From positions 623,159 through 687,158 of the forward strand of contig CP179887.1 of assembly GCA_047456295.1 (NCBI GenBank): a stretch of 64,000 nucleotides of DNA, given 5' to 3'. The stretch is from Candidatus Nealsonbacteria bacterium (GTDB lineage Bacteria > Patescibacteriota > Minisyncoccia > Minisyncoccales > JANBVM01). Below, one piece after another: positions 15,139 to 47,165 of the stretch (positions are counted from its first letter, which is position 1; each line of letters begins with the position of its first letter). The notes below the pieces were generated by a model that saw only the letters and a list, made by a program, of their open reading frames with translations, searched no databases and was not told the origin of the DNA. Both the position numbers and the translations under genes were made by a program.

Positions 15139-15141
15139 AAT

Positions 15142-20050: not shown

Positions 20051-20384
20051 TCCGGCGTGGCGCAATGGTAGCGCGGGTGCCTGTGAAATATCGCAGCTTC
20101 CTCGAGAAATCGAGGTTGAAAAACGGGGTGAATTGCGGGAAGCCTAATGGTTATTTGTTTGGCCTATGGTAATCCGCAGCCAAGCCTTCTTAAGAATTTT
20201 TAGAAGGAAGGTTCAGAGACTATCCCGGAAGGGAGTACTAGTCCAGAATATTTTATTTCTGGATGGGGAAGCGCCCCGCTCCGTAAGGTATTTATTATCA
20301 CGGAGATGAGATAGTCCACCCTTAGTGGAAACATTAAGATAAGGTGTAAGCACTAGGTTGTAGGTTCGAGTCCTACCGCCGGAG
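20051..20384 (+). tRNA. tRNA-Asn(GUU) interrupted in the anticodon by a group I intron
   Basis: 5' exon TCCGGCG-TG-GCGC-AATGGTA-GCGC-G-GGTGC-CTGT (20051-20084). 3' exon TAA-GCACT-AGGTT-GTAGG-TTCGAGT-CCTAC-CGCCGGA-G (20347-20384). Spliced loop CUGUUAA. U1-A72 and discriminator G73 as in bacterial tRNA-Asn. Alternative splice register would give Thr(UGU). Confidence 0.8.
20085..20346 (+). ncRNA. group I intron (tRNA-type, IC3-like), no internal ORF
   Basis: Core blocks resembling known bacterial tRNA introns: AAGCCTAATGG, CCGCAGCCAAGCC, GTTCAGAGACTATC (20211-20224; compare GUAGAGACUA of the Azoarcus intron). Possible P1 CUGU/GCAG with a U.G wobble at the 5' splice site. Intron ends in G (20346). 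Confidence 0.75.
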
Positions 20385-20423
20385 CCCAGCAGCGAATCGT
20401 TCGAGAGACCGGTCCGTATTAAA

Positions 20424-20450
20424 AACCCGACTAAACGGGTTTTTATTTTT
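20424..20450 (+). terminator. terminator after tRNA-Asn
   Basis: ACCCG-actaaa-CGGGT followed by TTTTTATTTTTT. Confidence 0.7.
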
Positions 20451-22273: not shown

Positions 22274-22424
22274 AATAAAGTACTAATTTCTTAAAAAAAT
22301 TTGTTTTCCGTAAATAAAATGTGTAAAGTTCGATATTTTTCTCTATGGGTCGTTTTAATGACTAAAGGCGTAAAAAGAAGGGTCGATTAACGCCTTAAAA
22401 ATAACTAAAATTAGCAATTAAAAT

Positions 22425-23516: not shown

Positions 23517-23537
23517 AAACTCGGTCGTATGTGCAAA

Positions 23538-23570
23538 ACAAAATTGCCTCGTAAAATGAGGCAATTTTGT
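23538..23570 (+). promoter_or_regulatory. perfect 13-bp intercistronic stem-loop between binding-protein and permease genes
   Basis: ACAAAATTGCCTC (23538-23550) / GAGGCAATTTTGT (23558-23570), 7-nt loop, no clean U-run. Confidence 0.6.
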
Positions 23571-23606
23571 TGAGAAAACATGATGAAACAGGTAAAATAA
23601 AGTAAA

Positions 23607-24473
23607 ATGGGAATACTTCCACAACTCATCTTGAACAGCATTATCGCCGGAGCGATTTATACTTTGGTCGCGCTTGGTTTTAATCTCATTTACGGCGCGA
23701 CAAAGTTTTTCAATTTGGCGCACGGCATAATGGCGGCAATCGGCGGCTACGCGGTGTTTTATTTTGCCAAAACTTTAGGATTAGACGTTTATGTTGCGAT
23801 TATTCTCGGCATTGCTTTAGCCGGTCTTGTCGGTTTTGGCCTGGATAAATTTATTTATCTCCCGCTTCGCAGGCGCAAAGCGTCAAACATGGTTTTGCTT
23901 GTTGCTTCGCTTGGAGCGATGACCGCTTTGCAGGCCGTTATCGCGATTCTCTTTTCCAGCCAATTCAAAACGCTTTCAGGAAATGTTGGCACGCAGAAAC
24001 TTTTTACAATTTTGGGCGGTGTCATAACACAGACGCAACTTGTTATTTTACTATCTGCTGCTTTAGTTATGGTTGGACTTATCGCTCTTCTTTACAAAAC
24101 GCAATTCGGCAAGGCAGTACGGGCCATCAGCGACGATGAGGAAGTGGCGCGGATTATCGGTATAAATACCAACAAAATCATCGGTTATGTTTTTTTCATC
24201 GGTTCGGCAATTACTGGATTTACCGGAATTTTGGTCGGTTTTGATGTAGGTATTGAACCGACAATGGGATTGGGCTTACTACTCAAAGGCGTTATTGCTT
24301 CTATTGTCGGCGGGGTCGGCAATATCTACGGTGGAGTTTTGGGCGCGTTTCTTTTGGGATTTGTGGAAAATTTCGGCATTTGGAAAATATCCGGCGGATG
24401 GAAAGACGCCATTGCCTTTACGCTCTTGATTATGTTTTTAATTTTCCGTCCCCGCGGAATTATGAATAAGTAG
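23607..24473 (+). CDS. livH: branched-chain amino-acid ABC permease LivH-type
   Basis: 288 aa polytopic membrane protein, N-terminal LNSIIAGAIYTLVALGFNLIYG typical of LivH. Confidence 0.85.
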   Translation: MGILPQLILNSIIAGAIYTLVALGFNLIYGATKFFNLAHGIMAAIGGYAVFYFAKTLGLDVYVAIILGIALAGLVGFGLDKFIYLPLRRRKASNMVLLVASLGAMTALQAVIAILFSSQFKTLSGNVGTQKLFTILGGVITQTQLVILLSAALVMVGLIALLYKTQFGKAVRAISDDEEVARIIGINTNKIIGYVFFIGSAITGFTGILVGFDVGIEPTMGLGLLLKGVIASIVGGVGNIYGGVLGAFLLGFVENFGIWKISGGWKDAIAFTLLIMFLIFRPRGIMNK

Positions 24474-24474
24474 T

Positions 24475-25341
24475 ATGGGGTATCTGATACATTTAGCCAT
24501 TTTGTTTGCCATCTACGCTATCTTAGGCGTGAGTTTGAACTTGGCTGTTGGCTACACCGGGCTTTTGTCCGTAACCCATGCCGCTTTTTACGGCATTGGC
24601 GCATATACTACCGCAATATTTCTGACAAAAAGCGGCGTTGGATTTTTCACTTCTTTGATTTTAGGAATTGCAATAGCAGTAGCCGTAAGCTTCCTCATCG
24701 GCGTAGTTTTGTCCAAGTTCAAGGGCGATTATTATGCGCTTGGCACATTTGGATTTAATACGATTGTCTTTGCTGTCTTTCTAAACTGGCAAAATTTGAC
24801 GGGGGGCCCTTTGGGTATTCCCGGAATTTCCAAGCCGGAATTGTTCGGCATAAACTTTGCGAACAATTTTAATTTTATGGTTCTTGCTTTGATATTTTTG
24901 GTTTTGATATATTTCACTTCGCGCTTTGTCGCCAACTCCTCTTTCGGCCGAGTATTGAAAGCAATCCGCGAAGACGAAACTGCCATTGCCGTTTTTGGCT
25001 ACAACACTTTGTATTTTAAACTTGTAATTTTTATTATTTCCGCCGCGATGGCGGCGGTTGCCGGTTCTCTCTTTGCTTCCTACATTACTTTCATTGACCC
25101 TTCCAGCTTCCAGCTAACGGAGTCGATGTTCATTCTCGCGATTATTATTTTAGGTGGACTTGCCAACCTGCGCGGTTCGATCTTAGGTGCGTTGTTTTTG
25201 ATACTGCTTCCTGAAATTCTGCGCTTTGTCGGCTTTCCGTCCGACATCGAGGCTCAAATGCGACAAGTGTTGTATGGCATAATTTTGATTTTACTCATGC
25301 TCTATCGGCCGCAAGGATTAATAGGCGAATACAAGTTATGA
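24475..25341 (+). CDS. livM: branched-chain amino-acid ABC permease LivM-type
   Basis: 288 aa polytopic. GYTGLLSVTHAAFYGIGAYT motif typical of LivM. 1-nt gap from livH and 4-nt overlap with livG. Confidence 0.85.
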   Translation: MGYLIHLAILFAIYAILGVSLNLAVGYTGLLSVTHAAFYGIGAYTTAIFLTKSGVGFFTSLILGIAIAVAVSFLIGVVLSKFKGDYYALGTFGFNTIVFAVFLNWQNLTGGPLGIPGISKPELFGINFANNFNFMVLALIFLVLIYFTSRFVANSSFGRVLKAIREDETAIAVFGYNTLYFKLVIFIISAAMAAVAGSLFASYITFIDPSSFQLTESMFILAIIILGGLANLRGSILGALFLILLPEILRFVGFPSDIEAQMRQVLYGIILILLMLYRPQGLIGEYKL

Positions 25342-26072
25342 AAATTATTGAGACAAAAAATTTAGTAAAGCGATTTAACGGCGTTCATGCCGTTGACCGG
25401 CTTTCAATCGGGGTTGAGAAAGGACAAATCACCGGCATTATCGGGCCGAACGGTTCCGGCAAAACAACGCTCATTAATCTTTTGAGTGGAGTTCTGGAAA
25501 TGGATAGCGGCGAAATTGTTGTTGATGGGGCAGAAAAAATTACAAGGATATTGCCGCATCAAGTTTCTTTCTACGGCATTACCCGTACATTTCAGAATGT
25601 TCGGCTGTTTGAACAAATGACGGTGCTGGACAACATTTTGGTTGTCGTAACTGAGAGAAATGTTTTTAGCTCGATTTTTGAAAAACACACTGAATACCAC
25701 CATAAAATAGTCGAGGAAGTTTTGCAGAAAGTCGCTCTTTTGGAAAAGAAAAATCAGTTAGCTATCAATCTTTCCTACGGCCAGCGGAAACTTTTGGAGA
25801 TTGCTCGAACGCTAGCGATGAAGGCGGAGGTTTATCTTTTTGACGAACCCTTTGCGGGGCTTTTCCCAGAGATGAGGAAAATCGTTTCTAGTATTATCAA
25901 AGAGTTAAAGCAGGAAAATAAAACCGTTGTCTTGATTGAGCACAATATAGGCTTAATCAGAGAGCTTTGCGACCATATTTTTGTGATGGATGAAGGTAAG
26001 TTATTGACCGAAGGCAAACCCGAATCTGTTTTGGAAAAAAGAGAGGTTATTGAGGCGTATCTTGGTGAATAA
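25338..26072 (+). CDS. livG: ABC ATPase LivG-type
   Basis: Walker A GPNGSGKTT, signature LSYGQRKLLEIARTL, Walker B VYLFDEP. Confidence 0.88.
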   Translation: MKIIETKNLVKRFNGVHAVDRLSIGVEKGQITGIIGPNGSGKTTLINLLSGVLEMDSGEIVVDGAEKITRILPHQVSFYGITRTFQNVRLFEQMTVLDNILVVVTERNVFSSIFEKHTEYHHKIVEEVLQKVALLEKKNQLAINLSYGQRKLLEIARTLAMKAEVYLFDEPFAGLFPEMRKIVSSIIKELKQENKTVVLIEHNIGLIRELCDHIFVMDEGKLLTEGKPESVLEKREVIEAYLGE

Positions 26073-26081
26073 ATAATAAAT

Positions 26082-26807
26082 ATGGAAAAAGAAACTTTAC
26101 TACAAATCCATAATGTTTCGGTTCACTACGGCGGAGTAAAGGCGCTTGACGGTGTTGACGTTTCGCTTGATGAAGGCGAAATTGTGGCTTTGATGGGACC
26201 GAACGGCGCGGGCAAGTCAACGATACTCAAAACGATTTTCGGCTTGGCGCCGGTTCATTCTGGAAAAGTTTTATGGCACGAAAAAGAGATAAAACCAGTT
26301 TCCCATGAAGTCGTGCAAAGGGGCATTTCTTTTGTACCGCAAGGCCGACGGGTATTCAATCACTTGACGATTGAAGAAAATTTGGAAATTGGCGGCTTTA
26401 TTGTCAGCGATAAAAAGGAGTTGGAAAGAAGAATCGCCGAAGCGATGGAGACTTTTCCAGTATTGAAGCAAAGGCGCAAAGCCAAAGCCGGAACGCTTTC
26501 CGGTGGCCAACAGCAGATGCTCGCTTTAGCGCGAGGGCTGATGACCGAACCGAAAGTTTTGCTTCTCGACGAGCCATCGCTTGGTCTTGCGCCGAAAATC
26601 GTTAGAGAAGTTTTTGCGAAGATTAAGGAAATAAACGAGAAACACAAAACGGCAATTTTGGTAGTTGAGCACAACATCAAATCGTTGCTTGATATCGCCA
26701 GTCGCGGTTATGTTTTGGATAAAGGAAAAGTTGTAGCAAAAGATGCTTCGCAAAAACTTCTTGAAAGCGGCATTTTAGAGAGGGTATTTGTGGGTAAATC
26801 GGTTTGA
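26082..26807 (+). CDS. livF: ABC ATPase LivF-type
   Basis: Walker A GPNGAGKST, signature LSGGQQQMLALARGL, Walker B LLLDEPS. Confidence 0.88.
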   Translation: MEKETLLQIHNVSVHYGGVKALDGVDVSLDEGEIVALMGPNGAGKSTILKTIFGLAPVHSGKVLWHEKEIKPVSHEVVQRGISFVPQGRRVFNHLTIEENLEIGGFIVSDKKELERRIAEAMETFPVLKQRRKAKAGTLSGGQQQMLALARGLMTEPKVLLLDEPSLGLAPKIVREVFAKIKEINEKHKTAILVVEHNIKSLLDIASRGYVLDKGKVVAKDASQKLLESGILERVFVGKSV

Positions 26808-26894
26808 TTTTGATCACAACCACATGCCAAAACTGGCAGGTCAAGGAGTAGCCAAAACAGGCACCTCAAAAGCTTCCTTAGTCCTCATGAAATA

Positions 26895-26922
26895 GGTTTG
26901 AACATCGTCCGGCTCCCGGAGT
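26895..26922 (+). repeat. cassette-junction core motif, degenerate copy (GGTTTGAACATCGTCCGGCTCCCGGAGT)
   Basis: Aligns with the consensus GGTTCTAACATCGTCCAGCCCCCGGAGC seen 12 more times downstream. Confidence 0.75.
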
Positions 26923-26954
26923 CAGCTTGTGCTCGGTTCGAGAGACCGAGCCGC
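26923..26954 (+). repeat. module B: T-arm-like hairpin (copy 1)
   Basis: CAGCTTGTGCTCGGTTCGAGAGACCGAGCCGC. Stem CTCGGT/ACCGAG with loop TCGAGAG. Confidence 0.7.
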
Positions 26955-26963
26955 TTATAGCGT

Positions 26964-27034
26964 TAGGGCGACCGAGAGGGGTTCGAATCCTACCGCCGGA
27001 GCAGGCTAGTGCTCGGTTCTTGCGACCGAGCCGC
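26964..27034 (+). repeat. 71-nt direct repeat: tRNA-Asn 3'-end fragment plus module B (left copy)
   Basis: Contains GGTTCGAATCCTACCGCCGGAGC (26980-27002), 22/23 identical to the 3' end of the tRNA at 20362-20384. ~90% identical to 28325-28395. Confidence 0.85.
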
Positions 27035-27041
27035 ATCAAAA

Positions 27042-27071
27042 ATCGCCAAGACGGCGATTTTTTGGTAGAAT
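27042..27071 (+). promoter_or_regulatory. hairpin + T-run + TGGTAGAAT promoter module
   Basis: ATCGCC-aagac-GGCGAT, T6, then extended -10-like TGGTAGAAT (TAGAAT 27066-27071). The ATG of the next gene is 45 nt downstream. Confidence 0.6.
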
Positions 27072-27116
27072 AGAAATAAAAAGTCATAATAAATATAACT
27101 TCAATTAAAAAACAAT

Positions 27117-28247
27117 ATGTCTAAAACAATAATTGCAATCATTGTTATAATCATTGTCGCGGGATTAGGTTATTGGATTTATCAATCAACTTTAGCACCC
27201 GAAGAACTAACTGAAAAAGAACAGGCGTGTATAAATTCTGGAGGAGAGGTATTAACATCATTGTGTTGTAAAGCAACTGGTGATTTCCCAAACCTGTGTC
27301 TCATTGGTCCCTGTGGTTGTTCCCCAGAAAACAGCCATGAAATAAAAGTTTGTGACTGCGGAGAAAAAAAATGTTTTGACGGTAATACCTGTGTACCAGA
27401 AGTATACAGCTTTAATGACTGTATTAAGGCTGGTTATCCAGTAATGGAAAGTTATCCACGCCAATGCAAAACGCCAGATGGGAGAATATTTACAGAAGGA
27501 GAAGAACATTGTATTGCGCCAACTGGCGAAAGTATGAGTTTGTTTGAAGCCATGCAAATCGCCATAACAAGTGAATGTGGCGACCAGCTAAGAAACTACT
27601 TAGAATTTGCTACGTGTAATGCAGATACAGGGACATGGTGGATAGATCTTGATATTGAAAAAGAAGGATGTAATCCTGCCTGCGTCGTAAATATTGCAAC
27701 AAAAGAAGCATCAATAAACTGGAGATGCACAGGTGTTTTAGAGATAAACAGTTTTGATGATTGTGTGGAAGCTGGTTATGCAATACTTCCTCCAATCCCA
27801 GGTGGCTATACTGAATGTAGAACACCTGATGGTAAGGTTTTCTATTTTGAGGAAATAGATGATGCATCCCTGTGTGCAAGAGATGGGGAAGTATTTTCAA
27901 GAGTATCTGATCAATACCTCGACAGTTGCTGCGAAGGATTAAAAGAATGGATACCTATACCGGATACGCGTTTTTCAATCGCAGATGTATGTTATGAAGT
28001 TGGGTTACCATCGGAATCTAACATAGGACTCTGTATAAAGTGTGGGGACGGGGTTTGTGAAAACCATTTGAACTATGATGAAAATCCATGTAATTGCCCA
28101 GAAGACTGTAAAGGGAAAAACAAGTCCATGTTTCAAAGCATAGAAGAATTTTGCCAGAGCAATGACTGGAAAATGTCTCTTTCCAAAGCATGTGAAGAAC
28201 AAGAACCTATTAAGGGTTCTCCAATATGTAAATTATGCGCTTTTTAA
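27117..28247 (+). CDS. membrane-anchored secreted cysteine-rich protein (paralog of 44651..45829)
   Basis: Signal anchor IIAIIVIIIVAGLGYWIY. 10-Cys module ACINSGG..LCCKATGDFPNLCLIGPCGCSPENSH..KVCDCG..KCF. Two FNDC(I/V)xAGY...C(K/R)TPDG repeats. Confidence 0.75.
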   Translation: MSKTIIAIIVIIIVAGLGYWIYQSTLAPEELTEKEQACINSGGEVLTSLCCKATGDFPNLCLIGPCGCSPENSHEIKVCDCGEKKCFDGNTCVPEVYSFNDCIKAGYPVMESYPRQCKTPDGRIFTEGEEHCIAPTGESMSLFEAMQIAITSECGDQLRNYLEFATCNADTGTWWIDLDIEKEGCNPACVVNIATKEASINWRCTGVLEINSFDDCVEAGYAILPPIPGGYTECRTPDGKVFYFEEIDDASLCARDGEVFSRVSDQYLDSCCEGLKEWIPIPDTRFSIADVCYEVGLPSESNIGLCIKCGDGVCENHLNYDENPCNCPEDCKGKNKSMFQSIEEFCQSNDWKMSLSKACEEQEPIKGSPICKLCAF

Positions 28248-28324
28248 AGAAATAGTGAGTAATGAGGTGTGGAGTACCTGCTCTAGAGATTGAACTATTT
28301 CCGAGACCGAACCGCCTACCCCTC

Positions 28325-28395
28325 TAGGGCGACCGAGAGGGGTTCGAATCCTAGCGCAGGAGCAGGCTAGTGCTCGGTTCGAGCAACCGAGCCGC
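28325..28395 (+). repeat. 71-nt direct repeat: tRNA 3'-end fragment plus module B (right copy)
   Basis: TAGGGCGACCGAGAGGGGTTCGAATCCTAGCGCAGGAGCAGGCTAGTGCTCGGTTCGAGCAACCGAGCCGC. Same order and orientation as 26964-27034. Confidence 0.85.
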
Positions 28396-28475
28396 CCAGC
28401 TTATTGCTGGGCGATTTTTATTACCTTGACTTTTCCTAAAAATAGGGGCAGATTTAAGGCAGATAAACACTATTT

Positions 28476-29700
28476 ATGAACCAAAAAGGCTTTATCCAAA
28501 TTCCGTTATTGGTAGCAATTATAGTTTCTATTGCAGCCGTTGCAGGGATCGGTTACGGAGTAGTTGAATATAATAAAACTTCTAACCTGGTTAAAGAGTC
28601 TCAGCAATTAGCCAAAGAAGAGAAATATAATGAGGCAATTGATAAATTAGAATCTGCTAAAAGTGGTTGGGCTACTAATGTTTTAGGAGTAAAAAAACAA
28701 GAAATTGTTAATGAGATAGAAAATAATAAAAAACTCCTTGAGGATAAATCAGAATATGCCCAAGGAATGGAAGAATTTAATAAAGGAAATTGGGAGAAAG
28801 CCAAAGAATTATTATCAAAAGTTTCCGAAATATCCCCTTATTATCAAGATGCGAAAAATAAGATAGAAGAGGCTCAAAAGAAAATAACAGAAAAACAAAT
28901 TGCCGAAGCAGTGGAGAAAACCACAGAAATGACTCAAGAGGAAATGACTAAACTTCAGCTCGAAAGACAAAAAGCTGAAAAACAATGGGCCGAAGCTGAA
29001 ATAAAACTAAAAGTAGAAGGACTGTTTAGAATAGGAAATACATTGCAAGATTATTATAACACAGTTAGAGAGGGAAGAGGGGTAGGTCAAAATTGGTGGT
29101 TGTATGGATATCAAGGAGAAGTAGACTTCGCATCATATCTAGCTAAACATGGTATAGGAGCAGTATATTGGCCAGAATACGAGTCAACGTATCATTCTCT
29201 TACTGGTAGTTCTTCTTGGTTGGATGCTAAAGAGAAATTAGATAATGTTTTGTTCCTCCCCTACACAGCAGCAGTTAGTTATAATGAGTCAGATTATGAA
29301 AAAATCAGAAAAATTCTCGATTTTTTTTAAATTTTACATCAAATATGAGCCTGATTTTAACGAAATATTAAGAGCGCCAGCGGAAACTCTTGGATTAAAG
29401 TCAGGAGACTGTGATGACTGGTCAATTCTCGCAAGCGCGGCATTCGCAGATGCTGGAATAGATTCAGCCATTATGTTTGTGAAAAGCATAGATGGGACGC
29501 AAGCTCATGCCATGGTATTAGTTCAATCTAAAGAGACCTTACCACTTTGGTCTTATTCAGATTTAACTCAGTATGGTCTTCCTAGTGGAAAATGGTGGAT
29601 TATAGAACCACAATTTACTTTTGGACAACAATCCCAGCATCCAGAATGGTTTACTCAATGGAAGTTTGAGGCAGCAGCATTAGTACCAGGTATAAAATAG
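28476..29700 (+). pseudogene. membrane-anchored coiled-coil / transglutaminase-like cysteine protease gene split by a +1 frameshift in a T8 tract
   Basis: ORF 28476..29330 stops inside T8 (29321-29328). The +1 frame continues ...FFKFYIKYEPDFNEILRAPAETLGLKSGDCDDWS...HAMVLV (Cys/His core of transglutaminase-like proteases). Removing one T gives one 407-aa ORF. Confidence 0.6.
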
Positions 29701-33598: not shown

Positions 33599-33606
33599 GA
33601 AGAAAA

Positions 33607-33636
33607 ATCGCCTTAGAGGCGGTTTTTTGGTAGAAT
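33607..33636 (+). promoter_or_regulatory. hairpin + T-run + TGGTAGAAT promoter module, leaderless geometry
   Basis: ATCGCC-ttaga-GGCGGT, T6, TGGTAGAAT (TAGAAT 33631-33636). ATG at 33645 is 8 nt after the -10. Confidence 0.65.
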
Positions 33637-33644
33637 TGAGAAAT

Positions 33645-34400: not shown

Positions 34401-34407
34401 TTAAGAA

Positions 34408-34437
34408 ATCGCCAGCAGGGCGGTTTTTTGTTAAGAT
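34408..34437 (+). promoter_or_regulatory. hairpin + T-run + -10 module, leaderless geometry
   Basis: ATCGCC-agcag-GGCGGT, T6, GTTAAGAT. ATG at 34444 is 6 nt after TAAGAT. Confidence 0.55.
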
Positions 34438-34443
34438 GTAAAT

Positions 34444-35712: not shown

Positions 35713-35744
35713 AGGTTAGTGTTCGGTTCGAGCGACCGAGACGC
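35713..35744 (+). repeat. module B: T-arm-like hairpin
   Basis: AGGTTAGTGTTCGGTTCGAGCGACCGAGACGC. Confidence 0.75.
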
Positions 35745-35750
35745 ATTAAA

Positions 35751-35779: not shown

Positions 35780-35785
35780 GGAAAT

Positions 35786-40281: not shown

Positions 40282-40318
40282 CCAATCTAAGGTTCTAAAA
40301 TCGTCCGATAGACCGAGC
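40282..40318 (+). repeat. junction core motif type 2
   Basis: CCAATCTAAGGTTCTAAAATCGTCCGATAGACCGAGC. Confidence 0.8.
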
Positions 40319-40350
40319 AGACTTGTGCTCGGTTCGAGGGACCGAGACAC
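40319..40350 (+). repeat. module B: T-arm-like hairpin
   Basis: AGACTTGTGCTCGGTTCGAGGGACCGAGACAC. Confidence 0.75.
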
Positions 40351-40373
40351 CTTCGGTTCGAATCATAGCCCCA
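40351..40373 (+). repeat. tRNA 3'-end-like fragment
   Basis: CTTCGGTTCGAATCATAGCCCCA (T-loop GGTTCGAATC plus acceptor-like tail). No 5' half present. Confidence 0.6.
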
Positions 40374-40384
40374 CAAATGTCAAG

Positions 40385-40413
40385 ATCAAGCTTGAATGAG
40401 CTTGATTTTTTTT
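40385..40413 (+). terminator. hairpin + T-run
   Basis: ATCAAGCT-tgaatg-AGCTTGAT followed by T7. Confidence 0.7.
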
Positions 40414-40496
40414 GTAGTATTTTCTAATATCTACTTATAGTTAAAGAGGATGGTTCTTTAACAAAATAAAAATAAGAAGGAAGTGAAAAATAGAAA

Positions 40497-41474
40497 ATGT
40501 CTGAATTTAAGGAAATAAAAATTTCTGATTTAGATCCAGAAGAATTTATAAAAGAAAAAATAGAAGAAATATCAAAAATAGTTGGAAAGAATGTAAAAGC
40601 AATTACAGCTTTATCTGGTGGAGTTGACTCTTCAGTCACAACAATGCTGGGTTATAAAGCATTAAGCGATAGGCTTAAAGTATATTTTATAGATAATGGC
40701 TTAATGAGAGAAAATGAACCCGAGCAGGTTGCGTCAATCTTTAAAAAATTAGGCGTTACCGTGGAAGTGATAGATGCTAAAAAGGAATTCTTTACTGCGC
40801 TGAAAGGGATTAGTGATCCAGAACAAAAAAGAGAAGCAATTACTCAAGCTTTCTATGGAAATGTTTTTCGAAAAGTCATAGAAAGTAGCGGAGCGAGATA
40901 TTTATTGCAGGGAACTATTCTTACCGACATCGAGGAAACAGTAGCTGGCATTAAACGACAGCATAATGTATTTGAGCAGATAGGGATTGATCCTGAAAAA
41001 GCTTTTGGATATAGAATAATTGAACCACTAATAGAAATCCGTAAGGATAGTGTAAGAAAAGTGGCAAAAGCCTTAGGTTTACCTGAGGATATATATAATA
41101 GAATGCCATTTCCAGGACCAGCACTTGCTGCAAGAGTAATAGGTGAAGTTACTTTTGAAAAAATAGAAATCGTTAGGAAGGCAACAACTATTCTTGAAGG
41201 AGAATTAAAATTAGAAAACACAGGCGCTTTTCAATATATGGCGATCCTCCACGAAGATAAAGTAACAGGAATGCGAAACGGTAAAAGAGATTTCGGTTAT
41301 CAGATTGAATTGAGATGTTGGGATAGCATTGATGCAAGAGTAGCAACGCCGACAGAATTATCGTGGGATATATTGAAAAGGTTATCCAAAAGAATAGCAA
41401 CTGAAGTTTCGGGTGTTGTCAGTGTAACATATAATATAACAACAAAACCACCTTCAACCATGGAAGCTATATAA
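40497..41474 (+). CDS. guaA: GMP synthase ATP-pyrophosphatase subunit (GuaA subunit B type), no glutaminase partner adjacent
   Basis: PP-loop ALSGGVDSSV. LQGTILTDIEET. EPLIEIRKDSVRKVAKALGLPEDIYNRMPFPGPALAARVIGEVT. C-terminal dimerisation end NITTKPPSTMEAI. Confidence 0.85.
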   Translation: MSEFKEIKISDLDPEEFIKEKIEEISKIVGKNVKAITALSGGVDSSVTTMLGYKALSDRLKVYFIDNGLMRENEPEQVASIFKKLGVTVEVIDAKKEFFTALKGISDPEQKREAITQAFYGNVFRKVIESSGARYLLQGTILTDIEETVAGIKRQHNVFEQIGIDPEKAFGYRIIEPLIEIRKDSVRKVAKALGLPEDIYNRMPFPGPALAARVIGEVTFEKIEIVRKATTILEGELKLENTGAFQYMAILHEDKVTGMRNGKRDFGYQIELRCWDSIDARVATPTELSWDILKRLSKRIATEVSGVVSVTYNITTKPPSTMEAI

Positions 41475-41535
41475 ATTTCTTATTAACAATATAGTGGCAA
41501 TCTTTAGCCACTTCTTTTTTTATTAAACCATCATT

Positions 41536-41568
41536 AAACAGGTCCTAACATCGTCCAGCCCCTGGAGC
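41536..41568 (+). repeat. junction core motif type 1
   Basis: AAACAGGTCCTAACATCGTCCAGCCCCTGGAGC. Confidence 0.9.
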
Positions 41569-41576
41569 TCGTAAAG

Positions 41577-41606
41577 ATCGCCTTAGAAGCGGTTTCCTGA
41601 TAGAAT
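41577..41606 (+). promoter_or_regulatory. hairpin + -10 module, leaderless geometry
   Basis: ATCGCC-ttagaa-GCGGT, TTCC, TGATAGAAT. ATG at 41615 is 8 nt after TAGAAT. Confidence 0.6.
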
Positions 41607-41614
41607 GAAAAAAT

Positions 41615-42043
41615 ATGAATAGAAAACAAATCAAAATCTGTAGCGCCTGTTTATTAGGAATAAGGTGTAGGTATGATGGAAAAAGTAAACCGGATGATAA
41701 AATTATTGAACTACTTAAAAAGGAAACCTTGATTCCTGTTTGCCCAGAACAGTTAGGTGGTCTATCAACACCAAGAGAACCAGCAGAACAAAAAGGGAAT
41801 AAGGTTATTACTAAATCGGGGAAAGATGTTACCGAAAGTTTTAAGAAGGGAGCAGAACAGGTTTTGGAATTAGCGGAATTATTTGATATCAAAGAGGCAA
41901 TTTTGAAACAGAAGAGTCCATCCTGTGGATGCGGACAAATTTATGATGGGAGTTTTTCCAGCAGGATTATTAAAGGAGATGGAGTAACCACCTCTCTATT
42001 AAAAACCAACGGTATTAAAGTTATAACCGAGGAAGATTTATAA
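41615..42043 (+). CDS. DUF523 / TudS-like (2-thiouracil desulfurase family) protein
   Basis: CSACLLGIRCRYDG N-terminal motif and internal SPSCG, characteristic of DUF523. Confidence 0.75.
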   Translation: MNRKQIKICSACLLGIRCRYDGKSKPDDKIIELLKKETLIPVCPEQLGGLSTPREPAEQKGNKVITKSGKDVTESFKKGAEQVLELAELFDIKEAILKQKSPSCGCGQIYDGSFSSRIIKGDGVTTSLLKTNGIKVITEEDL

Positions 42044-42056
42044 ACATTCAGTTATT

Positions 42057-42089
42057 AAACAGGTTCTAACATCGTCCAGCCCCCGGAGC
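42057..42089 (+). repeat. junction core motif type 1 (consensus copy)
   Basis: AAACAGGTTCTAACATCGTCCAGCCCCCGGAGC. Confidence 0.92.
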
Positions 42090-42098
42090 TCGTAAAAA

Positions 42099-42128
42099 AT
42101 CGCCTTAGGGGCGGTTCTTTGGTAGGAT
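42099..42128 (+). promoter_or_regulatory. hairpin + TGGTAGGAT promoter module
   Basis: ATCGCC-ttagg-GGCGGT, TCTT, TGGTAGGAT (42123-42128). The GTG start at 42156 is 27 nt downstream. Confidence 0.55.
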
Positions 42129-42155
42129 GAAACTATATAAGATTAATTTTTATCT

Positions 42156-42710
42156 GTGCAACTCTATTTTGTTACATCTAGCGAAAACAAAGTTAAAGAA
42201 GCAGAGGGCATTCTGGGTTTTGAGGTTGATAAGATATCTTTAGATATCAACGAGATTCAGACCCTTGAGGTAGAAGAAGTAGTTGAAGATAAGGCCAAGA
42301 GGGCTTTTGAGCAAGTTAAAAAACCGGTGATGGTTGAAGATACAGGGTTCTACATTGAGGCCTGGCAAGGCTTCCCGGGAGCGTTGGTTAAATGGATTTT
42401 GAAAACTCTTGATAACGAGGGGTTATGTTTGGCTTTTCAAGAAAAGAACCGCACTGTCACCGCTAAAACCTCTATTTGTCTTTACAACGGCAAAGAGGCG
42501 AAGGTATTTACGGGCGAAATTAAAGGCCAGATACCAGAGAAACCAAGGGGTGAAGGTGGTTTCGGATGGGACCCAATTTTCCAACCAGAAGGCCATAACA
42601 AAACTTTTGCAGAAATGAGCCAGGAAGAAAAAGATTTTATGTCTATGAGAAAGATTGCCCTGAATAAAATGAAACAGTTTTTAAAGGTAGACCCTGAGTT
42701 TTTACAATGA
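42156..42710 (+). CDS. rdgB: non-canonical purine NTP pyrophosphatase (RdgB/HAM1/ITPase)
   Basis: GTG start. FVTSSENKVKEAEGILG, EDTGFYIEAWQGFPG, GFGWDPIFQPEGHNKTFAEMSQEEKDFMSMRKIAL. Confidence 0.88.
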   Translation: MQLYFVTSSENKVKEAEGILGFEVDKISLDINEIQTLEVEEVVEDKAKRAFEQVKKPVMVEDTGFYIEAWQGFPGALVKWILKTLDNEGLCLAFQEKNRTVTAKTSICLYNGKEAKVFTGEIKGQIPEKPRGEGGFGWDPIFQPEGHNKTFAEMSQEEKDFMSMRKIALNKMKQFLKVDPEFLQ

Positions 42711-42720
42711 ATTAAGTGTT

Positions 42721-42752
42721 AAACAGGCTCTAACCTCGTCCACCCCCGGAGC
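42721..42752 (+). repeat. junction core motif type 1
   Basis: AAACAGGCTCTAACCTCGTCCACCCCCGGAGC. Confidence 0.9.
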
Positions 42753-42761
42753 TCGCATTTC

Positions 42762-42818
42762 CCACCTTATCGGTTAGGTGGTTTTTTGGTTGACCAATTA
42801 TTTTTTAGATGTTAATAT
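42762..42818 (+). promoter_or_regulatory. hairpin + T-run + TTGACC/TAATAT promoter of the csp gene
   Basis: CCACCT-tatcggtt-AGGTGG, T6, GG, TTGACC (42790-42795), 17 nt, TAATAT (42813-42818). Gives a ~100-nt 5' UTR. Confidence 0.6.
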
Positions 42819-42921
42819 TATTTACATAAGATAGTTGCCTAATGAAAATTTAGTCGAGTTTATTCAGGGAACTAAACTTTAGGATAAAACCTTAAAATAT
42901 TAATTAATTTATATCACAATC

Positions 42922-43119
42922 ATGGAAGGAACAATTAAAAACCTTACAGATAAAGGATTTGGATTTATTAACGTTGATGGTGAAGAGAAAGATTTATTCT
43001 TTCACAGCAACGAACTTAAGGGTGTAACCTACGATGAGTTAAAAGTAGGTGATAGAGTGTCTTTCGAAAAAGCTGATTCTCCAAAGGGTCCTAACGCAAC
43101 AAACGTAACCCGCCTTTAA
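42922..43119 (+). CDS. cspA: cold-shock protein (CspA family)
   Basis: 65 aa, KGFGFI (RNP1) and LFFH (RNP2). Confidence 0.92.
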   Translation: MEGTIKNLTDKGFGFINVDGEEKDLFFHSNELKGVTYDELKVGDRVSFEKADSPKGPNATNVTRL

Positions 43120-43242
43120 GAATTAATTCGGTAAATCAAATCAATGAGATCAAGCCCATTCTTGGGCTTTTTTTCATAATCAGTTAGGTGGTTTTTGATA
43201 AAATATAGTAAGGGTTTTAATTAATAACTAAACAATTAGTTT

Positions 43243-43389
43243 ATGATGCGTAAAAGATGGGTATTTGGATTTCTGGGATTTTTTGGAATAAAAGGAATAA
43301 TAGGAATTATAAATAGAAATTATTTAGAAGCTCTTTGGATTCTTTGGCTGGTATGGTTTCTTTGTTTCATACCCAAGAGAAAGTTATAA
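43243..43389 (+). CDS. unlisted 48-aa hydrophobic peptide
   Basis: MMRKRWVFGFLGFFGIKGIIGIINRNYLEALWILWLVWFLCFIPKRKL. Below the 60-aa ORF cutoff. Its stop TAA (43387-43389) overlaps the start of the junction motif. Confidence 0.4.
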   Translation: MMRKRWVFGFLGFFGIKGIIGIINRNYLEALWILWLVWFLCFIPKRKL

Positions 43390-43421
43390 AACAGGTTCTA
43401 ACCTCGTCCAGCCCCCGGAGC
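43389..43421 (+). repeat. junction core motif type 1 (consensus copy)
   Basis: AAACAGGTTCTAACCTCGTCCAGCCCCCGGAGC. Confidence 0.92.
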
Positions 43422-43454
43422 AGGCTAGTGCTCGGTTCTGGACGACCGAGACGT
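43422..43454 (+). repeat. module B: T-arm-like hairpin
   Basis: AGGCTAGTGCTCGGTTCTGGACGACCGAGACGT. Confidence 0.75.
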
Positions 43455-43521
43455 ATAGCTCTTTGCTGAGCAATTTTTATTTCCTCAATTACTAAAACCT
43501 GCTATAATCAAAGTAGTTTTT

Positions 43522-43734
43522 ATGATTGATATTAATTATCTCGGACCACTTTTATCAGAAAATCAATGGATTTTTTGGTTGATTATTCTTTGGACTTTAC
43601 CCTGGAAAGGAATAGCCCTTTGGAAATCTGCTCGCCTAAATGATAAATGGTGGTTTATCGCGCTTTTGATGATTAATACCCTTGCTGTATTGGAAATTCT
43701 ATATATTTTTATTATTAGTAAGAGAAAAAAATAA
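43522..43734 (+). CDS. DUF5652-like small membrane protein
   Basis: 70 aa. WKGIALWKSARLNDKWWFIALLMINTLAVLEILYIF pattern typical of this CPR-enriched family. Confidence 0.6.
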   Translation: MIDINYLGPLLSENQWIFWLIILWTLPWKGIALWKSARLNDKWWFIALLMINTLAVLEILYIFIISKRKK

Positions 43735-44609
43735 TGAAAGAATCTTTTTGGAAAAAAATAATAAAGAGTTTTAATCCTAAATTTTTTAAAGAAGTAGCCC
43801 CCCAATCATTGGTGCAAGGTTTTAAATATTTATTATTCTTATTTCTTCTTTTAACTTTATTTTTATCTTTGAAATATACGATCGGTTTTAACGGGACAGT
43901 AAAAGAATTTGCTAAAAACTTACCTATTTTCTGGGAAGAATTAAGAGATATTCCTGAAATCACTATAGAAAAAGGAAAAGTTACATTACCTAAACAATTA
44001 TTCATTCGAGAATGGGAAAAATTTGTTTTTGTGATTAATCCTCAGGGAGGAGTCGATTATTATTTAGCTTTAGTTGAGGATTATGAGGTAGGGGGATTGG
44101 TTATTCTTGAAGACAAGATAATTTTTAGGTCACAGAAGGGAAAAACTGAAATTTATAGTCTTCCAGAAGAAGCATCTTACTTGAATCTGAAGTTTGACGA
44201 AGGAGAAAAGGAGAAGTTGTTTAGTTTAACCCTGGATGAGAAGGTTTTTCAGCCGACTTTTAAAGAAATAAATCATTGGTTAAATATTGCTTCTTTCATA
44301 TTCTTTCCATTATGTTTTATTTTTATTTTCTTTGGTTTTTGGATTGGAAAATTAATTCAGATATTTGGTTTTAGCCTTCTTTCTTTAGTAGTTAATAAAG
44401 TAAAAAAAGTTGGTCTAAATTATCAAAATCTTTTGAATATAGGAATTTTTGCAATAACCCTACCCTTGATCTTGGAAACTTTGATGAAATTAAGCGGAGT
44501 TTCTGTTCCTTATTTTAATTCCATTTATTTTGTCCTTTACGCAGTTTTTCTAATAATTGGCATTTTGAAATGTAAAGTGGCAGCACCTCTTTCTGAAGAA
44601 TCTTTTTAG
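43734..44609 (+). CDS. polytopic membrane protein (DUF1189-like)
   Basis: 291 aa. One N-terminal TM, a ~130-aa loop, then 4 C-terminal TMs. The start overlaps the previous stop (ATAATG). Confidence 0.45.
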   Translation: MKESFWKKIIKSFNPKFFKEVAPQSLVQGFKYLLFLFLLLTLFLSLKYTIGFNGTVKEFAKNLPIFWEELRDIPEITIEKGKVTLPKQLFIREWEKFVFVINPQGGVDYYLALVEDYEVGGLVILEDKIIFRSQKGKTEIYSLPEEASYLNLKFDEGEKEKLFSLTLDEKVFQPTFKEINHWLNIASFIFFPLCFIFIFFGFWIGKLIQIFGFSLLSLVVNKVKKVGLNYQNLLNIGIFAITLPLILETLMKLSGVSVPYFNSIYFVLYAVFLIIGILKCKVAAPLSEESF

Positions 44610-44650
44610 TAAAAAATGAAAGGTCGAATATAATTTAACAATAAAATAAT

Positions 44651-45829
44651 ATGTCTAAAACAATAATTACAATCATTATTATAATAGTTATAGCGGGAGT
44701 AGGTTATTGGATTTATCAATCAACGATAACACCTGAGGGATTAACTGAAATGGAACAAGCCTGTATAAACTCTGGAGGAAAAATCTCCACATCATTATGT
44801 TGTAAATCAACTGGTGATTTCCCTAACATATGCCTCATTGGTCCTTGTGGTTGCTCTCCAGAAAATAGTCATCAGGTGAAAGTTTGCGACTGTGGACCTG
44901 ACAAATGCTTTAATGGAAGCGAGTGTGTGTCTTCAGACGAGATTTTAACTCTTCTTGAAAACCTTGAGCAAGAAACTGGGATAGATTTTTCAGAGATACA
45001 ACCAGTTGAATTTAAATGGGTTGTTAAAGTAGATCCAAAAGTAGAAGAAGTGGATATAGAAGGAAAAGGATTTGAAGCTAAACGTATATCGAATGGACAG
45101 TACGACAGTGTTGAATCTTTTCTCATAGATAGAGGTTTTGAAAAGAACCTTTACAATATAGCTGATGCCACTTTTGTTGGATTGGTGGGATATAAAAAAG
45201 ACCAGATTGTTTGTACGGTTTCTGGAGGGGCTACTGGGTACAAAGAAGCAGAGGGTCAGTGGATTCCACCAGAACCTGATAAAAAGGATGTAACGGTAAA
45301 ATGTGGTAAAGGAAGCGGGTTGACTGAACCCTTAGTTTCTACAGAAGAGGCAGTAAAGAAGCTTTTGGCTGAAAAATACAATAAGAAAATGGCAGAAGTA
45401 ACCATAAATATTAGCCAAGAGACAGAAAATCATGTTAAGGGTGGAGTTGTATTTCAGCCAGGTGGGCCTGAAAATTCAGGCATGTTTTTAGCAGCTAAAG
45501 AAAATGGTAGTTGGAAATTAGTACATGATGGCCAGGGAGCTATCCCTTGTTTAGATATTGAGCCTTATAATTTTCCAGTATATATGGTTATTGAATGTTT
45601 TGATGAAGAAACTGGAAAAGTAAAAGACAGAGCAGGAGAAGCATGTATCAATTCGGGAGGCGAAGCAACAACTTCTCTATGCTGTAAAGCAACCAGCGAT
45701 TATCCAAACCTTTGTCTTGTTGGTCCCTGCGGTTGTTCACCAGAAAATAGTCATCAAGTAAAAATTTGTGATTGTGGAGAGAACAAATGCTTTGATGGAG
45801 AACAGTGTATTGATGTTTCTTCAAAATAA
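44651..45829 (+). CDS. membrane-anchored cysteine-rich protein carrying the 10-Cys module at both ends (paralog of 27117..28247)
   Basis: N-terminal 95 aa ~85% identical to 27117..28247. The module recurs at the C-terminus (EACINSGGEATTSLCCKATSDYPNLCLVGPCGCSPENSHQVKICDCGENKCFDGEQC). Confidence 0.75.
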   Translation: MSKTIITIIIIIVIAGVGYWIYQSTITPEGLTEMEQACINSGGKISTSLCCKSTGDFPNICLIGPCGCSPENSHQVKVCDCGPDKCFNGSECVSSDEILTLLENLEQETGIDFSEIQPVEFKWVVKVDPKVEEVDIEGKGFEAKRISNGQYDSVESFLIDRGFEKNLYNIADATFVGLVGYKKDQIVCTVSGGATGYKEAEGQWIPPEPDKKDVTVKCGKGSGLTEPLVSTEEAVKKLLAEKYNKKMAEVTINISQETENHVKGGVVFQPGGPENSGMFLAAKENGSWKLVHDGQGAIPCLDIEPYNFPVYMVIECFDEETGKVKDRAGEACINSGGEATTSLCCKATSDYPNLCLVGPCGCSPENSHQVKICDCGENKCFDGEQCIDVSSK

Positions 45830-45855
45830 ATAACTGAAATATCTTTTATTTTGTT

Positions 45856-45887
45856 AAACAGGTTCTAACATCGTCCACGATGCGGAG
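45856..45887 (+). repeat. junction core motif type 1 (3' part diverged)
   Basis: AAACAGGTTCTAACATCGTCCACGATGCGGAG. Confidence 0.85.
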
Positions 45888-46048
45888 AAGTTGATTATTT
45901 AATTTGACAAAATAAGTGTTAGATATATACTTAAATAACTTTTCTTTTTACAAAGGAGAATGTCGTACTTTCTAAATCTTACGTTGAATCTTTTATCTGT
46001 GAGAACTTAGAAGTAGGTCGGTAAGTTTAATAAGTTTTTCTTAAAAAA

Positions 46049-46357
46049 ATGACAAATAAGGTTTATGTGGGAAATCTTTCTTTTGACACGACTGAAGACG
46101 CTTTAAAAGATTTGTTTTCCCAGGCCGGAACAGTAGATTCTGTTTCTATTATAATGGATAAATTCTCTGGCAGATCAAAAGGATTTGCATTCGTGGAGAT
46201 GTCTTCAGAAGAAGAAGCAAAAAAAGCGATAGAAACGCTTAATGGAAAAGAACTAGATGGAAGGAACATTGTAGTAGATGAAGCTAAGCCGATGGAAAAG
46301 AAACCTTTCAAAAAATTCTCTGGTGATCGTAGAGGATTTGATAAAAAGAGGTTTTAA
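46049..46357 (+). CDS. RRM-type RNA-binding protein
   Basis: RNP2 VYVGNL, RNP1 KGFAFVEM, basic C-terminal tail. ~110-nt 5' UTR downstream of TTGACA at 45904. Confidence 0.9.
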   Translation: MTNKVYVGNLSFDTTEDALKDLFSQAGTVDSVSIIMDKFSGRSKGFAFVEMSSEEEAKKAIETLNGKELDGRNIVVDEAKPMEKKPFKKFSGDRRGFDKKRF

Positions 46358-46508
46358 AAAAAGACTAGAATCAAATAATAAAGGAACCTTTCATAAAAGG
46401 TTCCTTTGTTTTATGTTCATCAACCATTTTTTAACATTGTCGTACAGGAAAAATCAGATAAATACTCATAATGGGCTTTAAATCTTTTAACCTTTCCTTA
46501 ATTTTCCT

Positions 46509-46545
46509 CCAATCAAGGGTTCTGAATGCGTCCAATAGGGAAGTC
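46509..46545 (+). repeat. junction core motif type 2
   Basis: CCAATCAAGGGTTCTGAATGCGTCCAATAGGGAAGTC. Confidence 0.8.
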
Positions 46546-46555
46546 ACGATAAAAA

Positions 46556-46585
46556 ATCGCCAATAAGACGATTCTTTGGTAAAGT
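46556..46585 (+). promoter_or_regulatory. hairpin + -10 module, leaderless geometry
   Basis: AATCG-ccaataaga-CGATT, CTT, TGGTAAAGT. ATG 46593 is 7 nt after the -10. Confidence 0.55.
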
Positions 46586-46592
46586 GAAAAGT

Positions 46593-47120
46593 ATGGAAGA
46601 TGAAAAACTTCATTATATAGTAGTTACTGGAATTATTATCAAAAAGGGAAAGTATTTAATTACAAGGAGAAGTTTAGAGGAAGCAGCATTTCCAGGTCTT
46701 TGGACTGTTCCAGGTGGAAAATTGAGAAAAAGTGATTATGTAGAGACTCCTAAAGACACTGGCGACCATTGGTATAATGTTCTGGAAAAACTCTTAGAAA
46801 GAGAGATACAAGAAGAGGTAGGATTAAAAATTAAAAACATCCATTATCTTTTAAGCTTGGCCTATATTCGTTCAGATAATATCCCAACCATGATTATTAG
46901 TCTTTATTGTGATTATGATTCAGGAAAGGTAATGCTTTCAGACGAACTGATAGAACATGCTTGGGTTACTGTAAATGATTTAAACAAATACAAATTTGTT
47001 CCTGGCTTAAGGGAAGAAATTGAGTTGGTTGATAAGGTCCTTAAGAAAGGCAAGCAGGATATGTGGAAGGGTAAATATGATACTGCTTCAAATGGAAGTT
47101 TGAGAGATGGTCATGGGTAA
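46593..47120 (+). CDS. Nudix hydrolase
   Basis: Nudix box GGKL...(insert)...EKLLEREIQEEVGL. The track start GTG 46584 lies in the -10 box, so ATG 46593 is preferred. Confidence 0.8.
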   Translation: MEDEKLHYIVVTGIIIKKGKYLITRRSLEEAAFPGLWTVPGGKLRKSDYVETPKDTGDHWYNVLEKLLEREIQEEVGLKIKNIHYLLSLAYIRSDNIPTMIISLYCDYDSGKVMLSDELIEHAWVTVNDLNKYKFVPGLREEIELVDKVLKKGKQDMWKGKYDTASNGSLRDGHG

Positions 47121-47150
47121 ACAGGTTCTGACATCGTTCTCCACCTGGAC
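47119..47150 (+). repeat. junction core motif type 1 (last copy, 3' part diverged)
   Basis: AAACAGGTTCTGACATCGTTCTCCACCTGGAC. Overlaps the Nudix stop codon (GGGTAAACAGG). Confidence 0.8.
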
Positions 47151-47165
47151 AGGTTGTGGTAAAGA

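Follow-up and report, generated by a model that had tools for sequence, protein, structure and literature searches.

A cysteine-rich protein gene between two tRNA-Asn 3'-end repeats in a Nealsonbacteria chromosome: a candidate unit of a tRNA-anchored cassette array

In a 64,000-nt stretch of a Candidatus Nealsonbacteria chromosome (contig CP179887.1, positions 623,159 to 687,158, forward strand; hereafter the window), a gene for a cysteine-rich protein is enclosed by two direct repeats that resemble part of a tRNA. This raises the question of whether the repeats are att-type junctions left by site-specific insertion and the gene a unit placed between them. An earlier note, made from the sequence alone, had described 71-nt repeats of about 90% identity with a weaker similarity reaching some 25 nt further left, each composed of a tRNA 3' fragment and a hairpin. 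This description was borne out. A repeat search over the window returned a direct repeat of 93 nt (26942-27034 and 28303-28395; 87% identity, start-to-start distance 1361 nt), within which the leftward similarity falls, and the 71-nt core (26964-27034 and 28325-28395) was found by hand count to contain 5 mismatches, corresponding to 93% identity. The gene, at 27117-28247, lies between the copies. The two 93-nt copies differ at 12 positions. Sub-patterns of 31 and 26 nt were unique to them in the window, with 0 expected from 100 shuffles.

Each copy consists of a 38-nt conserved lead-in (GAGACCGAGCCGC ... TAGGGCGACCGAGAGG), a 23-nt match to the 3' end of tRNA-Asn and a 32-nt trailer hairpin. 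The 23-nt segment spans the T-loop to position 74 of the tRNA. In copy 1 (GGTTCGAATCCTACCGCCGGAGC, 26980-27002), 22 of the 23 positions agree with the tRNA-Asn gene of the window, and in copy 2 (28341-28363) the agreement is 20 of 23. Neither ARAGORN nor the Rfam tRNA model matched the copies, in which tRNA positions ~52-74 alone are present. The acceptor 5' strand, the D arm and the anticodon arm are absent, and the copies are thus neither functional tRNAs nor tRNA pseudogenes; an unusual, permuted or split tRNA, or a transfer-messenger RNA, was rejected since both programs were negative. On the left side a third copy of the hairpin was found at 26931-26951, giving a tandem of 1.5 units with a period of 80 nt. 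The intrinsic terminators behind copy 1 and copy 2 differ in sequence.

The origin of copy 1 was clarified by the closed sister genome CP179888 (L130; the other L-numbers denote further compared loci or contigs), where an intron-less tRNA-Asn stands directly behind rpoD. Positions 26981-27079 of the window are 88.9% identical to L130 8859-8956, a segment that comprises the T-loop to 3' end of this real tRNA-Asn, its hairpin, a terminator and a TGGTAGAAT box. An odd hairpin loop (TTCTTGCGA) is also common to copy 1 and the L130 tRNA-Asn trailer. The alignment of copy 1 with a genuine tRNA-Asn end, trailer, terminator and -10 box shows it to be a displaced tRNA-Asn end. Compared with L130, the window holds ~7.7 kb of extra DNA between rpoD and the copy-1 tRNA fragment, containing a helix-turn-helix (HTH)/LAGLIDADG-like open reading frame (ORF), an intron-containing tRNA-Asn, proS and the liv operon. 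The intron-containing tRNA-Asn is situated 6.6 kb upstream of the cysteine-rich (Cys-rich) module.

Besides the long-type repeats, a short-type element was recognised, made of a 16-nt core, GGTTCTAACNTCGTCC, and a 12-16-nt tail that mostly ends in AGC. The common tail in the window, CCCCCGGAGC, equals the end of the sister-genome tRNA-Asn. Using nhmmer, at least 13 short-type sites were located in the window, all on the + strand, all between 26.9 and 47.2 kb and all downstream of tRNA-Asn; they follow ORF ends. No core site was detected on the minus strand or outside this range in the 64 kb. The idea of an array, put forward in the earlier note, was supported in that the related sites of the window are all downstream of and co-oriented with the tRNA-Asn.

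The sites are widespread. An exact 20-mer scan with one genome per species gave at least 116 stretches; the matches listed were mostly from Patescibacteria of many classes, and also included metagenome-assembled genomes labelled Omnitrophota, Zixibacteria, Scalindua, Acidobacteria and archaea. A profile search of fetched DNA from loci of the candidate phyla radiation (CPR) detected about 300 copies (262 at E ≤ 0.01). Neighbouring sites were co-oriented in 127 of 129 cases, with a median spacing of 861 nt (interquartile range 605-1572). They are intergenic, and 116 of 140 stand behind a co-oriented ORF at a median of 78 nt past its stop. No family dominates among the genes before them, which include GNAT, glyoxalase, NYN, DpnI, Gp49-like and DNA-alkylation repair proteins and many domains of unknown function; the array cargo is diverse and accessory in type. 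The long-type unit, with lead-in and 23-nt tRNA-Asn copy, is rarer (22 metagenome stretches and L131). It was found at 92% identity in another genome, often forms tandem 80-nt units and often comes after a short-type site. The site pattern is apparently undescribed in the ultra-small CPR bacteria: full-text literature searches on Nealsonbacteria genomes, on CPR integrons, on cassettes linked to tRNA genes and on the motif itself yielded no description of the architecture, an absence that is no proof of novelty. As a side observation, a 133-aa ORF in L130 (9330-9360) ends inside a core site (...AAC AGG TTC TGA) at the internal stop of the site, and at ~10 other loci the upstream stop codon is at the core or 1 nt before it.

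A connection of the sites with tRNA genes was evident from both position and sequence. The commonest tRNA in the fetched loci was tRNA-Asn (12); 11 of these loci contain sites as well, and in each of them the tRNA-Asn shares the strand of the sites and precedes every one. Other tRNAs were same-strand-upstream in 34 cases, same-strand-downstream in 11 and on the opposite strand in 5. The tails reproduce the last 8-9 nt (acceptor 3' strand, discriminator and next base) of the nearest upstream tRNA. Examples were found for Gln (CCCGCAGC, GCCCCGCA), Trp (GCCCCTGC), Ser (CTCACCG, TACCCTC), Lys (GCGGAC) and Asn (CGCCGGAGC, GCTGGAGC and, with an unusual T, CCCGGAGT). The mean longest common substring of tail and tRNA was 5.17, compared with 3.86 ± 0.14 in 2000 re-pairings (maximum 4.38), and 13 pairs shared at least 7 nt where 1.5 were expected (shuffle maximum 6). 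In several lineages the real tRNA-Asn is trailed by the same hairpin module as the sites, and in L020 and L037 a site is trailed by the sequence that trails tRNA-Asn in L106.

The boundaries of a module could be read from a cold-shock-protein unit shared by three genomes. A 660-nt segment of the window (terminator, promoter, cold-shock gene and small ORF) shows 96.5% identity to L131; in L142 the first 466 nt of the segment reach ~96%, while the orthologues adjoining the module are merely 77-80% identical. The identity starts at the same base in the three genomes, directly after the tail (...GAGC|TCG), although each genome has another kind of site on its left. Between the window and L131 it stops within or just past the next core, and the tails differ. 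More generally, 25% of the internal ends of contig-shared segments were at most 40 nt from a site, compared with 2.8% at random. The same-sample contig pairs L144/L145 and L137/L142 have common DNA up to CCGGAG(C) and diverge thereafter. In the viral contig L154 (14690-14730), AT-rich DNA with a terminator and a core site runs up to ...CCGGAGC, and at the next base a GC-rich prophage side with terminase, portal and capsid genes begins, which points to a prophage junction at a site or else to a chimeric assembly.

Taken together, the evidence somewhat favours the reading that the repeats are att-type junctions and that the Cys-rich gene, with its terminator/-10 box, is a module of a cassette array anchored at tRNA-Asn. 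The att-type nature of the repeats, already proposed in the earlier note, gained support from the orthology of copy 1 to a tRNA-Asn end, from the tRNA-matched tails and from modules that start after the tail. A module would insert directly after tRNA position 74, or after the equivalent end of an existing site. Its distal end would carry a conserved sequence, in the widespread type the T-loop-like 16-mer GGTTCTAACNTCGTCC and in the type of the Cys-rich unit ...TAGGGCGACCGAGAGG, followed by the longer tRNA-Asn copy and the trailer hairpin. On the right side of the module the insertion would leave a copy of the last bases of the target, 8-9 nt long in the common type and ~55 nt in the Cys-rich type. 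Repeated insertion would push older modules off the tRNA, yielding a co-oriented string of ~0.9-kb units. The module considered here would span the terminator/-10 box (27041-27071), the Cys-rich gene and the lead-in to 28340. Such an insertion would be site-specific, with a recombinase encoded elsewhere acting in trans; the shared 8-9-nt segment would fit a staggered cut or a tyrosine-recombinase overlap region.

A broader proposal is advanced only tentatively. CPR bacteria, and by transfer some other phyla, may have an integron-like capture system in which the tRNA 3' end serves as dock for self-expressed single-gene cassettes closed by GGTTCTAACNTCGTCC and moved by a recombinase acting in trans, the Cys-rich unit being a tRNA-Asn sub-type with a longer site.

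No Pfam or NCBIfam family matched the Cys-rich protein, which is 100% identical to Nealsonbacteria ACKKMR_03570 and whose domains recur in many CPR and DPANN proteins. The earlier note had pointed to a paralogue at 44651. The relationship is real, and it is limited to the first 93 residues (77% identity) and an internal repeat of that domain; the promoter and the first 93 codons are common to the gene and the paralogue (44634-44916). The gene is a mosaic, in which 27079-27221 and 27279-27742 match different paralogue regions in L130. Judging from these comparisons, the Cys-rich unit is an old, rearranged member of the array; no sign of present movement, and neither an empty site nor a circular junction of this unit, was encountered.

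Several observations weigh against the cassette-array reading. The L130 orthologue of the Cys-rich gene occupies the same array position behind tRNA-Asn, and the gene cannot be taken for a fresh arrival. The site after the end of the orthologous gene is a degenerate short-type in L130, a shortened long-type in L120 and a short-type in L135, so that a site is not strictly inherited with its gene. The 12 differences in 93 positions between the repeat copies imply that any event at the Cys-rich unit is old. Module left ends are without conserved sequence, and a match of 7 nt or more to the local tRNA is seen in just 13 of 52 tails. Some modules carry housekeeping-like genes (ProRS, MltG/YceG, a sigma factor, a GMP-synthase fragment). 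Single chromosomes hold clusters of sites at two distant places in opposite orientation, for which several anchors or rearrangements must be assumed. Finally, the recombinase that att sites would lead one to expect was not encountered: Pfam scans of the sizeable window ORFs revealed neither integrase nor resolvase nor transposase within or next to the array, nor any other recombinase in the window. Recombinase families were likewise absent from the 25 most frequent Pfam families of 131 large ORFs from 28 array loci and from the 25 most frequent families of 89 ORFs adjoining anchor tRNAs, these tallies covering families with more than one member. The window itself is low-GC chromosome with ordinary chromosomal genes (uvrA, groEL, dnaG, rpoD, proS, livKHMGF, mltG/yceG and others). 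Its sole mobile-element gene is a lone tnpB (52453-53694), which codes for an IS200/IS605-family RNA-guided endonuclease and has no tnpA in its vicinity.

Inserted DNA enclosed by directly repeated tRNA 3' ends is the classical mark of integrase-mediated insertion, and CPR genomes are deletion-prone. The sites could also be fossil scars, that is, attR remnants of ordinary self-encoded integrative elements (prophages, islands) that successively entered tRNA genes and later lost their integrases and most of their genes by deletion; no cassette system would exist and the Cys-rich unit would be immobile. The 13% divergence of the repeat copies suits this view, and one prophage-like contig abuts a site. 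However, the units are uniformly small (the median of 861 nt given above), and no integrase remnants are present in the window or in the frequent families of array loci. In addition, the 16-nt core hardly varies between the many CPR classes and the few further phyla that have it, which is unlike the product of random decay. Only 1 or 2 convincing sites were found among 2.9 million viral contigs. A search of phages for the site as an attP beside an integrase gave 1 match with the 20-mer and 23 with the 16-mer, the latter at about chance level and mostly inside unrelated genes, a C5-methylase among them. This explanation was considered unlikely.

The elements might alternatively be 3'-untranslated or terminator-proximal RNA modules that stabilise or process the upstream mRNA and were spread by duplication, much as modular BOX-type repeats between genes, their tRNA likeness being a by-product. 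Their placement between stop codons and intrinsic terminators, the co-orientation with the upstream ORF in 116 of 140 cases and the existence of tandem 80-nt units agree with such a role. By eye, the hairpin stems of the composite units also vary between copies and contain G-U pairs on the sense strand. On the other hand, no Rfam family was matched even at E ≤ 1 (between 19.9 and 48 kb nothing besides the intron was found). A fixed-register pair count over 23 80-nt units gave 67.7% paired positions against 66.2% in shuffled sequences, and the covariation score was 0.152 against 0.133, a difference that is not significant (55 of 500 shuffles reached the observed value). Moreover, RNA modules fail to predict tails that copy a tRNA, arrays that start at tRNA genes and modules that start right after the tail. 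The account is improbable. The related suspicion that the repeats are terminators found behind many unrelated genes was correct about the many unrelated genes, but the sites are upstream of the terminators and have tRNA-derived tails.

A purely local event, namely segmental duplication or homologous recombination among intergenic modules of paralogous Cys-rich genes, would draw on the mosaic gene family and on the promoter and 93 codons held in common with the paralogue at 44634-44916, but it is very improbable given that the long-type unit recurs in other contexts (22 metagenome stretches and, with 92% identity, a further genome), that the paralogue at 44651 is not flanked by the long-type repeat and that copy 1 is orthologous to a real tRNA end.

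Other readings of the core were tried and rejected. As coding sequence, its + frame would give TGSN[ILVF]V and its minus frame xD[DE]VRTC[LF], but neither continues into a long ORF, with stops within ~10 codons. In reverse complement the core gives D-[DE]-V-R-T, and the variable site positions are third codon positions. Separately, the exact 16-nt core was seen on the opposite strand in phage C-5 cytosine methylase genes (L176 4417-5433; also L156, L162, L163, L172 and L175; Pfam PF00145, E 6e-32), where it encodes WDDVRT (WDDVRTF). CPR sites translated in that frame give xD[DE]VRTC, and coincidence and ancestry cannot be told apart. Readings as an extracytoplasmic-function (ECF) sigma-factor promoter, a boxA-like element, a DNA-uptake sequence or an FtsK-orienting (KOPS-like) sequence were dropped; spacing, copy distribution or strand behaviour did not fit, and none of them predicts tRNA-matched tails.

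The cassette-array reading was compared with known systems. With integrons the arrays share co-oriented strings of mostly single-gene units of ~0.6-1.5 kb, diverse accessory cargo, one 3' site per unit, a right part of the site that comes from the target and fixed docking at one end; co-oriented single-ORF cassettes with one 3' site each are as expected for integrons. Unlike in integrons, docking occurs at a tRNA gene 3' end and not at attI, and modules bring their own terminator and -10 box whereas integron cassettes are promoterless. The sites form no imperfect palindrome with R''/L''-L'/R' boxes, and the attC palindrome (RYYYAAC ... GTTRRRY) was not present on sequence inspection. Most sites lack an inverted counterpart of the core GGTTCTAAC at 50-130 nt downstream, and every copy is a direct repeat. 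No IntI-type tyrosine recombinase gene adjoins the array in the Pfam scans of the window.

As in tRNA-associated islands, the direct repeats at the junctions correspond to the 3' part of a tRNA gene; an own integrase beside the junction was seen neither in the window nor among the frequent families near anchor tRNAs. Accretion of streptococcal integrative and conjugative elements and cis-mobilizable elements (ICE/CIME) at tRNA genes is similar in its tRNA 3'-end repeats at junctions, its newer insertions nearest the tRNA and its att-flanked, integrase-less units that could be moved by an enzyme supplied in trans. It differs in that the units here are single genes, tens per array, with one short core across a superphylum and several tRNA species, and in that no integrase-bearing donor element was identified here. 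Xer-dependent modules (integrative mobile elements exploiting Xer, IMEX, at dif, and Acinetobacter plasmid pdif modules) resemble them in small size, short conserved sites and movement by a host-encoded recombinase, putative here, in place of one of their own; the 28-bp XerC/XerD sites of pdif modules alternate in orientation, whereas the sites here are co-oriented, not dif-like and have tRNA-derived tails. Pneumococcal BOX and enterobacterial repetitive extragenic palindromes and interspersed mosaic elements (REP/BIME) are likewise composite, modular, orientation-biased and intergenic, with tandem sub-units near terminators, but they are lineage-specific, are not tied to tRNA genes and are without copies of a local tRNA end. 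Miniature inverted-repeat (MITE) or DDE-type transposons do not fit, as no inverted core was found at module left ends and all window copies are on the + strand; an 8-9-bp target duplication is compatible with such elements and not diagnostic.

Table. Positions in the window of the repeats, sites, genes and signals of the array and of its anchor tRNA.
Feature	Position	Strand	Details
tRNA-Asn(GUU)	20051..20386	+	exon 1 20051-20084, group I intron 20085-20346, exon 2 20347-20386
tRNA-Asn trailer	20387..20445	+	degenerate hairpin module (CAGCAGCGAATCGTTCGAGAGACCGGTCCG), then intrinsic terminator 20420-20445 (terminator scan)
Site B1	26894..26954	+	diverged core AGGTTTGAACATCGTCC, tail GGCTCCCGGAGT, trailer-type hairpin 26931-26951
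Repeat copy 1	26942..27034	+	lead-in 26942-26979, tRNA-Asn 3' copy 26980-27002, trailer hairpin 27003-27034
Terminator hairpin ATCGCC-AAGA-CGGCGAT + T-run, fused to extended -10-like TGGTAGAAT	27041..27071	+	putative module 5' end
Cargo gene	27117..28247	+	376 aa, N-terminal membrane anchor, Cys-rich modular protein
Repeat copy 2	28303..28395	+	lead-in 28303-28340, tRNA-Asn 3' copy 28341-28363, trailer hairpin 28364-28395
Intrinsic terminator after copy 2	28393..28423	+	terminator scan
Array sites, core GGTTCTAACNTCGTCC + tail	32047, 33438, 34342 (weak), 34663, 35207, 35684 (with hairpin 35721-35745)	+	
Further array sites	40290 (with hairpin 40327-40347), 41540, 42061, 42725, 43393 (with hairpin), 45860, 47123	+	range 40290..47151
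Cold-shock-protein module	42746..43408	+	96.5% identical to L131 and L142, bounded by sites

Further features of the array were observed. The fused terminator/-10 module occurs in 7 copies (27038-27086, 33603-33651, 34404-34452, 35746-35794, 41573-41621, 42095-42143 and 46552-46600), in which a terminator hairpin ATCGCC-N4-GGCGrT and T-run pass straight into TGGTAGAAT, with the next ATG ~8-15 nt further on; this arrangement suggests mRNAs with a very short leader or none. Four near-identical intrinsic terminators (AGCCCGAGATTGTTTCTCGGGTTTTTGG) at 30737, 31467, 34805 and 35243 stand behind different genes, and the CCCGAG...CTCGGG terminator type is also present in other CPR loci. Downstream of copy 2, two ORFs (28476-29330 and 29245-29700) jointly cover what is a single intact transglutaminase-like protein of 426 aa in the related contig P0122, and the gene (28476-29700) appears to be frameshifted or split in the window. 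The neighbours of close homologues of ORF 28476 were not syntenic.

The anchor region has its own peculiarities. The upstream neighbours of the tRNA-Asn are dnaG, rpoD and the HTH/LAGLIDADG-like ORF. ARAGORN missed the unspliced gene but folds the joined exons into a canonical tRNA-Asn(gtt) of 74 nt; the intron was recognised as Rfam Intron_gpI (86.9 bits). It is 262 nt long and interrupts the anticodon loop, with insertion after position 35 as read by eye from P1, and we know of no reported group I intron in tRNA-Asn. Directly upstream, at 19352-20017, a 221-aa ORF combines an N-terminal HTH (HTH_23/HTH_3) with a LAGLIDADG-like stretch (FIAGIALYLGEGSK) picked out by eye. It is missing in the sister genome, where rpoD abuts the tRNA, and may code for a free-standing homing endonuclease.

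Between the tRNA and copy 1, the livKHMGF operon (22350-26850) has 42% GC, compared with ~36% in its surroundings, and is found at 91-95% nucleotide identity in contigs of other CPR lineages with different neighbours (L124-L129). In L124 and L125 the DNA downstream of the operon is the reverse complement of the upstream DNA, and inverted repeats of at least 55 nt (up to ~290 nt) flank it; a remnant of the right one is present at 26808-26850 in the window. From these features the operon looks like a mobile five-gene unit. A 45-nt flank on the 5' side of site B1 (26850-26893) matches the sequence on the 3' side of the L135 Cys-rich gene, which suggests that the liv operon landed in an older copy of a Cys-rich-type module.

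Elsewhere in the window, the minus strand at 57500-62000 (GC ~47%) contains long repeats with periods of 783 and 1533 nt (83-100% identity) and no complete listed ORF, and is probably part of a very large repetitive surface-protein gene that runs off the window end. At 2539-5235 a NosD/beta-helix/PKD protein gene is made of 66-147-nt periodic repeats, and at 10970-16173, on the minus strand, a tandem array of five paralogous GT4 glycosyltransferase genes was found.

CPR bacteria, host-dependent organisms with tiny genomes, gain and reshuffle accessory genes by routes that are largely obscure. A tRNA-docked cassette architecture, if true, would be a general route of gene flow across the very large CPR radiation and would account for the hypervariable regions behind CPR tRNA genes. 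The core site would then offer annotators a simple sequence marker of cassette boundaries. It would also point to an undiscovered recombinase with a short portable target, of possible use in genetic tools for organisms that are hard to manipulate. Should the arrays prove to be no more than fossil scars, the marker still serves to date and delimit genes that were acquired horizontally.

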